A stretch of DNA of 64,000 nucleotides, from the NCBI GenBank assembly GCA_038887515.1, contig JAWAKK010000002.1, forward strand, positions 192,001 to 256,000, given 5' to 3'. How positions within the stretch are numbered: the first letter of the stretch is position 1; each line of letters starts with the position of its first letter. The stretch is from Candidatus Nezhaarchaeales archaeon (lineage in GTDB: Archaea; Thermoproteota; Methanomethylicia; Nezhaarchaeales; WYZ-LMO8). The position numbers were made by a program, and so were the translations under genes. The notes beneath the pieces were generated by a model. The model ran no database searches, was not told the DNA's origin, and saw only the letters and a program-made list of their open reading frames with translations. Shown here piece after piece: positions 28,861 through 41,316 of this stretch.

Positions 28861-29388
28861 ATGGTTTCGGAGCCCTCAGAGCAATACGATAAAGAGTTGA
28901 CAAACGTACTATTGAAGCTGATTGCAGTACTTTGTGGCAAAGACGCCATCGAAGTAGTCAAAGTGTTACTTAACGAGAAGGAGATGAGTGACGAGATACT
29001 AGCCGAGAAAACGGGTATGAGACTTAACCAAGTTCGACGAATCCTCTACGACCTTCTGGACAAGCACGTCGTGACTTACCAGAGAGGGATAGATGAAGAA
29101 AGGGGTTATTACGTGTACACTTGGTCTCTGAATAGGGACGGCCTAAAGGAGATAGTGAAGGAGAGAAAGAGGCTAGTCTTAGAGAGACTGCGCGAGAGAA
29201 TTCGATACGAGGAGCAGAACATGTTCTTCGTTTGTCCCAACAGTTGTACTGGTAGGATGCCCTTTGATAAGGCTTTGGATCAACAGTTTAAATGCTTGCG
29301 TTGTGGCGCAGTACTGCAAAGCTTCGATAACACCAAGATGATTGAGAAGTTAAGGGCAAAAATAGAGGCGTTAGAGAAGGATCCTTAA
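28861..29388 (+). CDS. tfe: Transcription factor E (alpha)
   Basis: wHTH (DEILAEKTG...VRRILY.L), YVYTW, C..C...FKCLRCG. Confidence 0.92.
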   Translation: MVSEPSEQYDKELTNVLLKLIAVLCGKDAIEVVKVLLNEKEMSDEILAEKTGMRLNQVRRILYDLLDKHVVTYQRGIDEERGYYVYTWSLNRDGLKEIVKERKRLVLERLRERIRYEEQNMFFVCPNSCTGRMPFDKALDQQFKCLRCGAVLQSFDNTKMIEKLRAKIEALEKDP

Positions 29389-29486
29389 GCGTAGTTACGA
29401 TGTAGAGTTACCTCCTAGAGAGCTTAAAGGACAAGATACGTAAGTTTTATCTTACCTTAGGGGTAGAACCAATCCTTGTGGGTTTT

Positions 29487-31176
29487 ATGAAATACATTTT
29501 CATTACAGGAGGTGTTTTATCAAGCGTAGGTAAGGGGGCCGTGACTGCTTCGATAGGCAAGATGCTCCAGGTTAGAGGCTTTTCTGTAACGGCAATAAAG
29601 ATAGACCCATAGGCCTTAGGGGCCGGGTAAACATAAACGTTGATGCTGGAACAATGAACCCATAGGCTCTGAGCTGGAGGCTTAGAGCCGGGTATATATG
29701 CATGGCGAGGTCTTCGTGACGGAGGATGGCGGCGAGGTAGACCTAGATCTCGGTCACTATGAGCGTTTTCTCGATATAGACCTATCAAAGGACAACAACA
29801 TTACGACTGGACAAGTGTACATGGTGGTCATAGAGGCCGAGAGGAGGGGGAAGTACCTCGGCAAGTGCGTACAAATAATACCTCACATAACCGACGAGGT
29901 GAAGAGGAGGATAAGGTTAGTAGCTCAGAAGAGCAACGTGGACGTGACGCTCGTAGAATGTGGAGGCACAACGGGGGACATAGAGGGACTCCCCTTCCTT
30001 GAGGCTATAAGGCAAATGAGACTTGAAGAGGGCTTTTCGAACACGCTCTTTGTTCATGTAGCCTTAGTTCCAATATTGGAAGTAACTGGAGAATTTAAGA
30101 CGAAACCTCTACAACACAGCGTCCAAGAGCTTAGACGCATAGGTATACAGCCCGACATCGTAGTGGCAAGGTGTAAGCAGCCGCTAGACGATGAAGCCAA
30201 GAAGAAAATAGCGCTTTACAGCAACGTCCCTGAAGAGGCGGTGTTCACGTCTTACGATGTGGACTGCATATACGAGCTTCCAATAATACTTGATGGACAG
30301 GGAATGGGCGCTTACATATGTAAGCGGCTTACGCTAGATGGATGTAAAGCCGACTGGTCTTCGTGGAGGGAGATAGTTGAGAGGTATAGAAGTTTTAAGT
30401 ACGAAGTCGAAGTATGCATGTGCGGTAAGTACACGAAGCTAAAGGACTCTTACATAAGCATAATAGAGGCCTTAAAGCATGCGGGCGCAGCCCTTGAAAC
30501 TAAGGTTAACATGACATGGCTCGAGGCAACAACGTTCGAACAAGGAGAGGGCATACCTCGAGAGTTTCAGGATATTTTGAGTTCCTGTGATGGCATAATA
30601 GTACTGCCGGGCTTTGGGGCCCGTGGGGCAGAAGGTAAGATTAAGGTCATCAGATACGCAAGGGAAAACAAGGTACCGTTCCTGGGCATATGCTTTGGAA
30701 TGCAACTGGCAATTGTAGAGTTTGCACGAAACGTTGTAGGTCTCAAAGAAGCAAACACAACAGAACTTGATCCGTCAACGTACCACCCGGTTGTTGACCT
30801 CCTACCGGAACAGCACTACGTTAAGGAAGTAGGTGGTACTATGAGACTCGGGGCTCAGGCAACCGTGCTTGAACCCGGAACGAAAGTCTACGAGCTTTAT
30901 GGAAGGCCGATAATATTTGAAAGGCATAGGCATAGGTACGAGGTCAACCCGACCTACTGGTCTGTACTTCAAAGCCACGGTTTGGTCTTCTCCGGATATA
31001 GCATTGATAAACGGAGGGTGGAGTTCATAGAGCTCAGGGACCACCCATTCTTTGTTGCAACTCAATCGCACCCAGAGTTCAAGTCGAGGCCCAATAGACC
31101 CTCACCCATATATTACGGCTTCGTGAAGGCCTGCCTCGAGCATAGGCTTAAGAGATTATCAGCTCCGAAATGCTGA
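29487..31176 (+). CDS. pyrG: CTP synthase with two introns (exons 29487-29610, 29631-29663, 29696-31176; 545 aa spliced)
   Basis: Exon 1 [17 protein letters not shown]...KIDP; exon 2 [11 protein letters not shown]; exon 3 [12 protein letters not shown]...GICFGMQ...HPEF. Confidence 0.95.
29611..29630 (+). other. 20-nt BHB-type intron 1 in pyrG mRNA
   Basis: ACCC AU^A GGCC UUAGG GGCC GGGU AA^A; removal gives GAC CCA UAC AUA AAC (DPYIN). Confidence 0.9.
29664..29695 (+). other. 32-nt BHB-type intron 2 in pyrG mRNA
   Basis: ACCC AU^A GGCUCUGAGC UGGAG GCUUAGAGCC GGGU AU^A; removal gives AAC CCA UAU AUG CAU (NPYMH). Confidence 0.9.
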
Positions 31177-31186
31177 TGGTCAAAGG

Positions 31187-33688
31187 CTATGAACGCTTGA
31201 ACGAAGCATAAGCTTCTCGCATCGCTTCTACGAACCTCCTCGTAGCCTCTTCGGGGTTTGAAGACCTTGTTATCGCTGAGCCTACAATTATTATCTTGCA
31301 ACCACTTTTGACCAATTCTCTTATGTGCTCAAGCCTAACTCCGCCGGCTACAGCGACGGGTACCTTCACGGAATTGACTACTTCCTCAACGAGCTTTATC
31401 TTCCTAGTTACGTCCCTCTCCCTCATTTGCGTACTTATGCCCATATGCACGCATATTATATCGCATCCCAACTTCTCAACCTCCTTTGCCCTGGCGAGTG
31501 GATCCTGTACATTTATCAGGTCACACATTATCTTGACGTTGTACTTCCTAGCAGCACCTACAGCATCTTTAATAGTGTAGTCGTCGGTAGCGCCCAACAC
31601 CGTAACTACATCAGCCCCAGCTTCGGCTGCAAGCTCCACTTCGAGCCAACCCGTGTCAAAGGTTTTGAGGTCGGCTACTATAGTAGCATAAGGGAACCTC
31701 CTTCTAAACTCCTTCACTGCTTCTAGGCCAGCGGACTTTATGAGTGGGGTCCCAACCTCGATGATCTCGGCTCCTCCTCTATAGCAGGCCTCGGCTATGC
31801 TTAGCCCATCTTTCATATACCTTTCATCTATTGCTACCTGTAGCTTGGGCCCCGTGTAGAGGGGCTCGAGACCTAACTGCTGGAGCTTCTTGTCTGTGGG
31901 TACTCCGTGATAGTTCCAGCCTCTAATAGCATAATAAGAATCGATTAATCTCGTTAGGTCGACAACTTCTCCCTTGGATGCCCCCTCTCTCAACTTTTCA
32001 TTTAAGAAGCGTAGCGGCAGAGCGTCGTGGCTTCTATCGAAACCCTCTCTGGCGTTGAAGAGCCTTTCCAAGTTGTATATCCTCTCTCCTATCTTGTAGA
32101 ACTCCTCTTCGTCAACGTAGAAACCAGTTGCTGTTGTTAGTAGCCTCGCGTAATGGGTTGGCTCGTAAGCCAGCGTCGAGAATAAGGCTAGCATTGTAAA
32201 TTTGCACATTATCAACGAGTCTATTACGGCCGAGACGTCCTGCATCCTCTTGACGAGCTCTGCCTTACCCTCATAGGACAGAGGATCTATGTACTTGGGG
32301 ACGCCAAGGATCTCGCTGATCACGACGTAGGCCCTTAAGTGGCACCCTCCTCTATTAGAAGTTGCGTAAGCTAACGCCATCCCTTTAGCTCCTCGAGGAT
32401 CGTAAGCTGGTAGCTCTAGACCCTTTACGTGGGCTGCTATGTCTTCGGCGTTAAGCATCTTTGATATTCGGCTAACGCCTTCGCCCACGATTTTACCTAG
32501 ACCTCTCCTATACGCTGTATCGACTATAACCTTTAGTAAGGAGTCCGAATTGCCAAAATTGAGTTTTATGTTCACTTCGCTAAGCTTCTCTAATAGTCCC
32601 TTCTCATAACACTCCATTAAGAAGCCTACGGTGTTCCCCAGCGAAATCGTATCAAGACCCAATTTATTGCATAAGTCGTTTGCTCGAGCTATGACGTTAA
32701 TATCCGATATACCGCAATTCGGCCCTAAAGCCCATACACTTTCGTATTCTGGGCCCGAGGATATGACTTCCTTCCCATCAACAGTGTACTTCACTAAGCG
32801 GCCGCACGCTATTGGACATCCGTAACATGCCGTCCTCTTCACGAGCATTACTTCAGTTATCTTCTCTCCGCAGACTTCTTCTGCTTTATCGTAGAAGCCT
32901 CGCGTAAAGTTGTAGGAAGGAAAGACGCCTGCCCTATTCATCAGGTGCACTAGGAATGCCGTGCCGTAGCGCCCTAAGCTATCTCCGGTAATCGGATTCC
33001 CCCTTAACACGTCGAGCGTCTTCCTAACTTCTTCATTGAAAGCCTTTGGATTAGCTACTTTAACTTCGCCGGTCCCCTTAACTGCTATAGCCTTTAAATT
33101 CTTGGATCCCATGACTGCGCCTAGGCCACCCCTACCCGCGGCCCTGTGTTTATCGCTTATGATGCAAGCAATCTTTACGAGGTTTTCGCCAGCTGGACCA
33201 ATACAGCAAACCTTAACGTCCTCCAGCTTTAAATCTCTCTTTATTTCCTCTTCCGTAGCATCTGTTTCAAGACCCCAAATCTTACTTGCATCTCGTAGCT
33301 CGACTTTTCCGTCAGCAACGAATAGGTATACGGGGCTAACGCTCTTTCCTCTAACTATTATTCCATCGAAGCCAGCTTTCTTCAGCTCAGGTCCCCATGA
33401 CCCTCCGCACTGAGAGTCAAAGATTGTGCCGGTCAAAGGTGACTTCGAGGATACAGCAAATCGACCTGATGTAGGCGCCCTTGTCCCAGTCAAGGGCCCA
33501 GTCATAAACACTAGGATGTTTTCCTCATCTAGAGGGTTAGTACCTGGCCTTAACGAGTCGAAGAGGAACTTCGCCGAGTATCCTCGGCCGCCCACGTACT
33601 TCATAGCTATATCCCAGTTGAGATCTACGATGGTCACGTCGCCACTAGACAAATCTGCATCTAGTATTTTGCCTGTATAGCCGCTCAA
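31187..33688 (-). CDS. Tungsten aldehyde:ferredoxin oxidoreductase fused to C-terminal 3-hexulose-6-phosphate synthase domain
   Basis: AOR motifs KSPLTG, GRGGLGAVMGSKNLKAI, CYGCPIAC, GPEYE, RGGCH; the last ~220 aa have LQVAID, EVGTPLIK, ADLKTFDTG, VAGG. Confidence 0.9.
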   Translation of the reverse strand: MSGYTGKILDADLSSGDVTIVDLNWDIAMKYVGGRGYSAKFLFDSLRPGTNPLDEENILVFMTGPLTGTRAPTSGRFAVSSKSPLTGTIFDSQCGGSWGPELKKAGFDGIIVRGKSVSPVYLFVADGKVELRDASKIWGLETDATEEEIKRDLKLEDVKVCCIGPAGENLVKIACIISDKHRAAGRGGLGAVMGSKNLKAIAVKGTGEVKVANPKAFNEEVRKTLDVLRGNPITGDSLGRYGTAFLVHLMNRAGVFPSYNFTRGFYDKAEEVCGEKITEVMLVKRTACYGCPIACGRLVKYTVDGKEVISSGPEYESVWALGPNCGISDINVIARANDLCNKLGLDTISLGNTVGFLMECYEKGLLEKLSEVNIKLNFGNSDSLLKVIVDTAYRRGLGKIVGEGVSRISKMLNAEDIAAHVKGLELPAYDPRGAKGMALAYATSNRGGCHLRAYVVISEILGVPKYIDPLSYEGKAELVKRMQDVSAVIDSLIMCKFTMLALFSTLAYEPTHYARLLTTATGFYVDEEEFYKIGERIYNLERLFNAREGFDRSHDALPLRFLNEKLREGASKGEVVDLTRLIDSYYAIRGWNYHGVPTDKKLQQLGLEPLYTGPKLQVAIDERYMKDGLSIAEACYRGGAEIIEVGTPLIKSAGLEAVKEFRRRFPYATIVADLKTFDTGWLEVELAAEAGADVVTVLGATDDYTIKDAVGAARKYNVKIMCDLINVQDPLARAKEVEKLGCDIICVHMGISTQMRERDVTRKIKLVEEVVNSVKVPVAVAGGVRLEHIRELVKSGCKIIIVGSAITRSSNPEEATRRFVEAMREAYASFKRS

Positions 33689-37909: not shown

Positions 37910-41040
<3,131 letters not shown>

Positions 41041-41141: not shown

Positions 41142-41232
41142 GGGCTCGTAGCTCAGCATGGTCAGAGCGCTCGGCTGATAAGATGTCTCAGACACCGAGA
41201 GGTCGGGGGTTCAAGTCCCCCCGAGCCCACCA
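41142..41232 (+). tRNA. tRNA-Ile(GAT) with 13-nt intron at 37/38 (41181-41193); CCA encoded
   Basis: GGGCTCG acceptor stem; CTCGG-CT GAT A[AGATGTCTCAGAC]A-CCGAG; BHB CUGA UA^A...UCAG AC^A. Confidence 0.93.
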
Positions 41233-41242
41233 CCCTTCGAGA

Positions 41243-41316
41243 GGGCCGGTAGATCAGCCTGGTGGATCGCCCGCTTCGCAAGCGGGAGGTCGCGGGTTCA
41301 AGTCCCGCCCGGTCCA
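41243..41316 (+). tRNA. tRNA-Ala(CGC)
   Basis: Cloverleaf, CCCGC TT CGC AA GCGGG anticodon arm, G3:U70 pair. Confidence 0.94.

Follow-up and report, generated by a model that had tools for sequence, protein, structure and literature searches.

The bulge-helix-bulge (BHB) introns of archaea, which normally reside in tRNAs, have, as far as two accounts from 2009 and 2020 state (PMC2738675; PMC7714728), been reported from a single coding sequence, that of cbf5; introns in other archaeal coding genes appear in these sources only as predictions, and one case in a 5' untranslated region (UTR) was added later. Here we describe the CTP synthase gene (pyrG) of a Candidatus Nezhaarchaeales archaeon from a hot spring, which is interrupted by two insertions of 20 and 32 nt. 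The gene lies on contig JAWAKK010000002.1 of assembly GCA_038887515.1, in a window of 64,000 nucleotides (positions 192,001 to 256,000 of the forward strand) whose own numbering is used throughout. We read the insertions at 29664-29695 and 29611-29630 as archaeal BHB introns in the pre-mRNA, and on the comparison of sequences put the probability of this reading at nearly nine in ten. Very probably, then, they add to a kind of intron that is already known, but the set within this one genome is unexpectedly rich.

The pyrG insertions resemble the cbf5 intron of Desulfurococcales and Sulfolobales (Watanabe 2002; Yokobori 2009, PMC2738675), which is likewise a short insertion in a coding sequence, often has a relaxed motif, and is associated with a hetero-oligomeric endonuclease; because that intron disrupts the codon of a conserved residue, it must be removed. 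They differ from it in their host gene, in the presence of two introns 33 nt apart at a repeated target, and in their lineage, the Nezhaarchaeales. With the BHB introns of pre-tRNAs (PMC4033280; PMC3241643) they share the motif geometry, the enzymes and the link between the endonuclease's specificity loop and relaxed or oddly placed introns, and their sizes lie within the range of 11-175 nt given for archaeal BHB introns (PMC2738675). Unlike a pre-tRNA, however, the pyrG substrate would be an mRNA without a tRNA body, and the outcome a reading frame, not a folded RNA. The BHB intron in the 5' UTR of Haloferax volcanii HVO_1309 (PMC7714728) also makes an mRNA the substrate of the splicing endonuclease, but in an untranslated leader and in a euryarchaeal host. 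The pyrG introns, in contrast, lie in the coding frame. The HAC1/XBP1 mRNAs of eukaryotes lose a very short intron independently of the spliceosome, through an endonuclease that acts on stem-loops and a ligation of the RtcB type, and this changes their frame. The pyrG case would be similar in the removal of a short intron without a spliceosome, in RtcB-type ligation and in the altered frame, whereas HAC1/XBP1 splicing uses another nuclease and another recognition motif and belongs to a regulated stress response. This IRE1-dependent splicing is named in PMC13149111. Our full-text literature search, which covered journals other than subscription journals, returned no report of archaeal mRNA introns in pyrG, in Nezhaarchaeota or in several genes of one genome.

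Read plainly, pyrG consists of three pieces within 29478-31176 (+; Table 1). The first frame (from 29478, with the probable start at ATG 29487, as homologues open with MKY..) finishes ..K-I-D-P at 29609 and is followed by TAG, and the last, of 492 aa, opens at ATG 29698. The first piece matches positions 1-40 of the Pfam profile CTP_synth_N and the last positions 54-265, so that 13 profile positions are missing between them. Removal of both insertions supplies exactly these 13 residues, as Tyr, ten codons, Tyr and Met: the first Tyr codon is re-made from U29610 and AC29631-32, the ten codons ATA..CCA occupy 29633-29662, and the second Tyr codon is re-made from U29663 and AU29696-97, followed by ATG 29698. 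The predicted spliced junctions (^ marks the joint) are ..GACCCAU^ACAUAAAC.. for intron 1 and ..AACCCAU^AUAUGCAU.. for intron 2.

Both insertions have two 3-nt bulges on opposite strands around a 4-bp helix, formed by ACCC in the exon and GGGU in the intron. The body of intron 2 is a hairpin in which GGCUCUGAGC (29665-74) pairs with GCUUAGAGCC (29680-89) over 10 bp with one G-U pair; that of intron 1 has 4-5 bp, with bulges AUA and AAA. A free-energy fold of 29590-29715 yields both hairpins and both ACCC/GGGU helices. The sequence bears out every particular that the original prediction had given for intron 2: its 32 nt and their coordinates, the stem, the loop, the bulges, and the target ACCCAU^A in common with intron 1. 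The central helix joins exon to intron, so that ACCC in the exon is a requirement for any intron that ends in GGGU; the prediction was correct in deducing this from the geometry of the motif. Across the genome (1.29 Mb in nine contigs, 94% completeness) there are exactly two matches to the pattern ACCCATAGGC..GCCGGGTAW, and a reversed control has none.

The following course of events would connect this anatomy with a functional protein. Base pairing between the exonic ACCC and the intronic GGGU of the transcript would create the 4-bp central helix, with a 3-nt bulge on each side and the intron body as a hairpin; the (alpha-beta)2 endonuclease of the host would cut after the second nucleotide of each bulge, and RtcB would join the exons. 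Loss of both introns would create one open CTP synthase frame with a Tyr codon re-made at each junction, whereas an unspliced RNA would confront the ribosome with UAG at once at each 5' junction. We infer cleavage, ligation and the exact cut positions from the motif. BHB motifs are cleaved after the second nucleotide of the bulge, and at intron 2 a joint placed there reads AAC CCA UAU AUG CAU GGC GAG, or N-P-Y-M-H-G-E, the product that had been predicted; the comparisons below argue strongly for it, as a deduction at the RNA level. A cut after the third bulge nucleotide would leave an identical mRNA, and a cut after the first would cost the Tyr in genome G007, where the 3' bulge of intron 2 is AGA.

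The comparison with relatives carries most weight. The family to which the organism belongs (f1) comprises ten genomes from four genera, its own genome counted, and all ten have both pyrG insertions at the same two positions, with TAG at both 5' junctions. The lengths vary: 20, 21, 20, 19, 20, 19, 20, 22, 19 and 27 nt for intron 1, and 32, 32, 32, 32, 31, 31, 31, 33, 33 and 30 nt for intron 2, most of which are not divisible by three. The piece between the insertions behaves differently. All seven of its variable columns are third codon positions, and the encoded peptide is invariant in all ten genomes; such a constraint is understandable only if ribosomes read these 33 nt in one phase with exons 1 and 3. 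Together with the 13-position gap in the profile, this variation confined to third positions strongly supports the proposed 33-nt micro-exon. Exon 3 is 81-88% identical among the ten genomes and contains no stops.

The pairing is conserved along with the positions. Over the ten genomes, 97.3% of the 220 cells of the named structure are paired, as compared to 16-50% when the partners are slid; the ACCC/GGGU central helices are paired in 95-97.5% of their cells (97.5% for intron 1). Three pairs are altered on both sides, and the covariation score of 0.093 exceeds both the 0.060 of shuffles, none of which reached it in 500, and the slid controls (at most 0.033). Intron 1 shows a compensatory change from G-C to A-U in two genomes; in intron 2, 97% of the cells of the 10-bp stem are paired, two of its pairs are altered on both sides, and the loop is free to vary. 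The helices are therefore maintained by compensatory change while loop and length drift.

A frame broken twice might also be expected if pyrG were a pseudogene or if the insertions were assembly errors. However, this is the sole pyrG found in a genome of 94% completeness, both insertions are present in ten separately assembled genomes, exon 3 is conserved without stops, and all changes in the micro-exon are synonymous. The original prediction had made its case depend on support from DNA reads; a 40.5-kb contig from a DNA run matches the stretch without a difference, although that run is possibly the source of this DNA. We regard decay or error as extremely improbable. The chance is scarcely better that ribosomes bypass the hairpins, or shift frame over them, on an RNA that is never spliced. 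A stop codon followed by a hairpin at the take-off site is reminiscent of phage T4 gene 60, but in bypassing of that type matching take-off and landing codons flank the gap, and in pyrG the take-off codon would be CCA, whereas neither hairpin is followed by a CCA or CCN landing codon. Moreover, two hops 33 nt apart would be needed, the conserved Tyr, which is re-made only by joining U with AC and U with AU, would be lost, and in this genome the same motif marks the splice site that has been published for cbf5. Self-splicing group I or group II introns were discarded as candidates: insertions of 20 and 32 nt compare with a core of hundreds of nucleotides in these introns, and Rfam gave no match at E <= 1 in 29400-29800.

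Splicing at the bulges is predicted to yield an uninterrupted CTP synthase that is colinear both with the Pfam profile and with genes that have no insertion. We examined 110 pyrG loci, some of which are duplicates of each other; 81 have no intron and show a spacing of 144 nt between the motifs, and they read ..DPY(I/L/V)N(V/Y/F)DAG(T/L)MNP(Y/F)(M/I)HGE.., in line with the spliced product. Tyr stands at both junctions in nearly all 110 loci, with Phe at the second site in a few. Within the class we surveyed 62 genomes, 60 of them with a pyrG match: the two-intron pattern is confined to f1 (10), 40 genes are uninterrupted, and the other ten genomes, from three families (f4, 5; f7, 4; f8, 1), have a different intron in the P-loop region. 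This P-loop intron of 21-28 nt is also of BHB type (GGGG-AAA..CCCY-ARA; ..GUG GGG AA^A..CCCY AR^A GGU..), lies about 130-170 nt upstream of the HGEVF motif (loci L014-L017 and L022-L027), and shows compensatory changes in its stem, e.g., GGGAGC/GCUCCC vs. GGAGGA/UCCUCC. A FastTree phylogeny built on 104 exon-3 proteins unites the genomes with two introns in one clade (support 100) and those with the P-loop intron in another (97). A further locus on a contig labelled Bathyarchaeia (L041:1243-1518), whose position in the tree is unresolved but outside both intron clades, bears an intron of 21 nt at only the first of the two pyrG sites, GACCCAU^AGGCUGGAAACAGCCGGGGAA^AC.., with the target of the f1 introns and a similar start of the stem. 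In the phylum (401 genomes, 385 with a match) the f1-type split was found only in f1 among the matches listed; five genomes with weak or double matches were set aside as genes cut by contig ends, not by introns. The P-loop type of intron may still occur elsewhere in the phylum.

Two paralogues of EndA and a single RtcB are encoded in the genome. The best matches of the 191-aa paralogue are the chains 3p1z_B, 3ajv_B and 2zyz_B (E ~1e-46 to 1e-48), which are crenarchaeal catalytic subunits; 3p1z_B is presumably the alpha chain of A. pernix, as the chain lengths in PMC3241643 suggest. The paralogue aligns with 3p1z_B without a gap across the Crenarchaea-specific loop, where its K46 and K48 face K44 and R46 of A. 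pernix. The study that solved the A. pernix structure reports both residues as needed for relaxed substrates, and the loop, of which the lysine is required, as conferring cleavage of relaxed and of oddly placed introns (PMC3241643). Since the 178-aa paralogue is without this loop and has Gly aligned at the catalytic His, it fits a structural beta subunit. The splicing endonuclease of Haloferax volcanii, by comparison, is homodimeric. Judged by these alignments, the host encodes a two-subunit endonuclease of the crenarchaeal type for relaxed motifs, plus the ligase RtcB.

Several observations weigh against BHB introns in pyrG. Neither motif is of the strict hBHBh' form, as the outer helix has at most 1 bp at both introns. 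With this helix missing, the motifs are of the relaxed kind, which is cut by (alpha-beta)2 enzymes bearing the specificity loop (PMC3241643; PMC12397907). The fold of the single sequence gives a modest signal for the region of intron 2 (z = -2.55) and less for that of intron 1 (z = -1.30, with 20 of 200 shuffles folding equally well and a stem of only 4-5 bp); because these statistics are modest, the case is built on genome comparison. The A-U pair of the central helix has become an A-C mismatch at intron 1 in one and at intron 2 in two of the ten genomes. As the ten genomes are close kin, the covariation counts are small (four cells altered on both sides). Splicing would also have to outrun the coupled translation of archaea. 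A search of sequencing runs listed no RNA run with the stretch, and two metatranscriptome runs of the study that produced the DNA run, of each of which about 3% was sampled, gave no reads on 29000-31300, a depth that speaks neither for nor against splicing.

The pyrG introns are not the only candidates in this genome. We scanned it with our own script for 4-bp central helices with 3-nt bulges and a hairpin body. A loose version gave 1466 frame-joining candidates, mainly borders of neighbouring genes, and was unusable; the version narrowed to compact hairpins that rescue a broken frame led to the genes reported here. The scan is an incomplete census, blind to long introns, to intron bodies of complex structure and to helices with mismatches; pyrG intron 2 itself failed one filter, and a later cut-off on stem length dropped pyrG intron 1. 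Six further putative mini-introns were recovered, in the genes for aIF2-gamma, aIF5B, an IF-2B-family protein, uS5, HypD and cbf5, which brings the total to at least eight mRNA introns in seven genes (Table 1). The classical crenarchaeal cbf5 intron has been assigned to the same codon position as the one found here (PMC2738675), so the scan has in the latter a positive control. All of the f1 genomes (10/10) but none of the other relatives examined (0/15) have the aIF2-gamma intron, and its predicted splice product equals the sequence of these 15 intronless relatives at that junction. The aIF5B intron, whose stems show many compensatory changes, occurs in 17 of 25 relatives (f1 10/10, f2 1/1, f3 4/4, f5 2/4; f4 0/3, f6 0/2, f7 0/1), and is the older of the two. 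All eight introns lie inside the most conserved motifs of their proteins (DPY, NPY, DxPGHE, TQHIG, THCNAG, GTLDP, VCGxHE). Five of the seven intron-bearing genes serve translation, and the third nucleotide of the 5' bulge is A in all seven contexts listed, with pyrG counted once. Inspection by eye removed four other candidates, F (C1:286040), G (C7:2138), H (C1:467531) and I (C2:272711), as their upstream peptides looked non-coding or two separate genes had been joined.

Table 1. Parts of the interrupted pyrG gene (window positions) and the six further candidate mRNA introns of the genome (contig or locus positions); cuts are predicted, and ^ marks the joint.
Feature	Position	Strand	Remarks
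pyrG exon 1	29487..29610	+	ends ..GAC CCA U; frame from 29478 matches Pfam CTP_synth_N 1-40
Exonic ACCC, 4-bp central helix of pyrG intron 1	29605..29608	+	partner GGGU 29625-28
pyrG intron 1, 20 nt	29611..29630	+	stem GGCC/GGCC, GGGU, 3' bulge AAA
pyrG micro-exon, 33 nt / 11 codons	29631..29663	+	(U)AC + ten codons + U(AU); fills profile positions 41-53
Exonic ACCC, central helix of pyrG intron 2	29658..29661	+	partner GGGU 29690-93
5' bulge AUA, pyrG intron 2	29662..29664	+	putative cut after 29663
pyrG intron 2, 32 nt	29664..29695	+	starts 33 nt past the end of intron 1
Hairpin of pyrG intron 2	29665..29689	+	stem 29665-74 / 29680-89; loop 29675-79, UGGAG
Intronic GGGU, central helix of pyrG intron 2	29690..29693	+	U to C in 2/10 family genomes
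3' bulge AUA, pyrG intron 2	29694..29696	+	putative cut after 29695; middle nucleotide U or G in relatives
pyrG exon 3	29696..31176	+	AU + 492 codons + stop; Pfam CTP_synth_N 54-265 and GATase
aIF2-gamma intron, 32 nt	C2:24138-24176 = L113:4639-4677	+	..DCPGHE^MLMATML..; Pfam GTP_EFTU 4-80 before, 85-187 after
aIF5B intron, 29 nt, canonical hBHBh'	C2:21716-21751 = L113:2217-2252	+	..REVGAM^TQHIGAS..; outer helix GUUGGG/CCCAAC
IF-2B-family (MtnA / aIF2B-like) intron, 30 nt	C1:10132-10168 (L114)	-	..LLTHC^NAGALAT..; IF-2B profile 2-114, then 117-279
uS5 intron, 30 nt	C1:3237-3273 (L114)	-	..VQRQTD^AGESSRFK..; Pfam match to downstream piece only
HypD intron, 22 nt	C3:12272-12300 (L156)	-	..MHVCG(T)HEW..; Pfam match to downstream piece only
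cbf5 intron, 21 nt	C2:333909-333936 (L155)	+	cut within catalytic Asp codon, classical position

The identical targets of the two pyrG introns invite the question of whether one is a copy of the other, either through reverse splicing, guided by the pairing of its GGGU with a second ACCC in the exon, and subsequent reverse transcription, or through microhomology copying at the DNA level between the A-CCC-AUA repeats. Such a history would supplement the BHB reading, not replace it, and we give it an even chance. The 7-mer ACCCAUA is used twice within 53 nt, and a general preference of the enzyme for ACCC-AUA is unsupported, because the six other introns use other contexts (CACG-AGA, GCCA-UGA, CUGC-AAA, ACGG-ACA, CCCU-AGA, CGGU-ACA). 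The first stem pairs, GGC/GCC, are common to both pyrG introns and absent from all six others; the first-site-only intron of L041 likewise opens AGGC and ends ..GCCGGGG-AA. For Thermoproteales, furthermore, it has been suggested that tRNA introns transpose (Fujishima 2010, as cited in PMC4033280). However, the target dictates the GGGU half as well as some of the bulge letters, which leaves a similarity of about three base pairs free of constraint, and in two genera intron 1 has GAC/GUC at this place. A blastn-short search of the genome with both introns found no donor or third copy, all other matches having E >= 0.3. A check of ACCCATA across the genome, which the original prediction had proposed, gave 158 sites on both strands; only the two in pyrG precede a hairpin and GGGYA, and the other 156 are empty. 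One of the empty sites is inside pyrG itself (window 31104-31110), in a different codon phase. Because both introns predate the split of the four genera, the order of events is unreadable, and no intermediate was seen. The suggestion of local copying or reverse splicing is thus plausible in view of the shared target and the shared GGC/GCC, but a donor, an intermediate and a mechanism were not found.

The two introns might instead have arisen independently, with the codons for Asp/Asn-Pro-Tyr providing a favourable, evolutionarily frozen exon half. The location of all eight introns in highly conserved motifs fits survival where the exonic half cannot drift, and the P-loop intron of related families reveals that intron gain recurs in pyrG. 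Nevertheless, since any 4-mer can act as exon half, one would not expect two targets to agree by chance in six or seven letters, and the shared start of the stem would need an explanation of its own. We consider independent origin conceivable but somewhat improbable.

Equal helices at the two introns have a further consequence, as the first ACCC could pair with the second GGGU. The skipping of the micro-exon that had been suggested on this ground is energetically possible: forcing this pairing costs about 1-2 kcal/mol in the fold model (-39.5 vs. -40.4 and -41.3 kcal/mol). Nothing supports it otherwise, and the skipped product would lose 11 residues that are invariant in 10/10 f1 genomes. A 36-nt joint in the DNA run that looked like a skipped product was rejected, as it comes from the contig of another organism with an intronless pyrG.

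Some observations concern the surroundings of pyrG and other RNAs of the genome. An 833-aa fusion of an aldehyde:ferredoxin oxidoreductase (AFOR_N + AFOR_C) and a barrel of the OMPdecase/HUMPS family (window 31187-33688, -) converges on the 3' end of pyrG. ARAGORN in intron mode places introns in 18 of 46 tRNAs. An 88-nt tRNA at window 41142-41229, just before tRNA-Ala (41243-41316), is recognized by Rfam and was missed by the default tRNA scan; ARAGORN reads it as tRNA-Ile containing an intron of 13 nt. Towards the 3' end of the 23S rRNA gene, whose last position is 41046, window 40896-40939 forms a very strong BHB-like hairpin with a 13-bp stem, which could be a native rRNA helix or a small rRNA intron.

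What stands out in this organism is a central metabolic gene with two BHB introns and a micro-exon of 11 codons. For annotation this means that standard gene callers shorten such genes, with pyrG reduced to a 492-aa fragment, and mis-score genomes as having pseudogenes. It is possible, though doubtful, that in the coding genes of the class BHB introns behave as small mobile elements, each guided to a complementary exon 4-mer by its own half of the central helix. If this were the case, it would explain the twin pyrG introns, the similar intron at the same site in L041, and the presence of at least eight introns in seven essential genes of a 1.3-Mb genome, together with their location, like that of homing elements, in the most conserved motifs; a prokaryote would then have multi-intron genes with micro-exons, and the equal helices of pyrG could permit skipped products. 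Sister families carry different sets: 17 of 25 relatives have the aIF5B intron, the pyrG pair and the aIF2-gamma intron are specific to one family, and three others have a different pyrG intron. Archaeal mRNA splicing would thereby turn from a lone curiosity into recurring, datable intron gain, and these archaea would offer a natural system in which to study the spread of introns of the endonuclease type.

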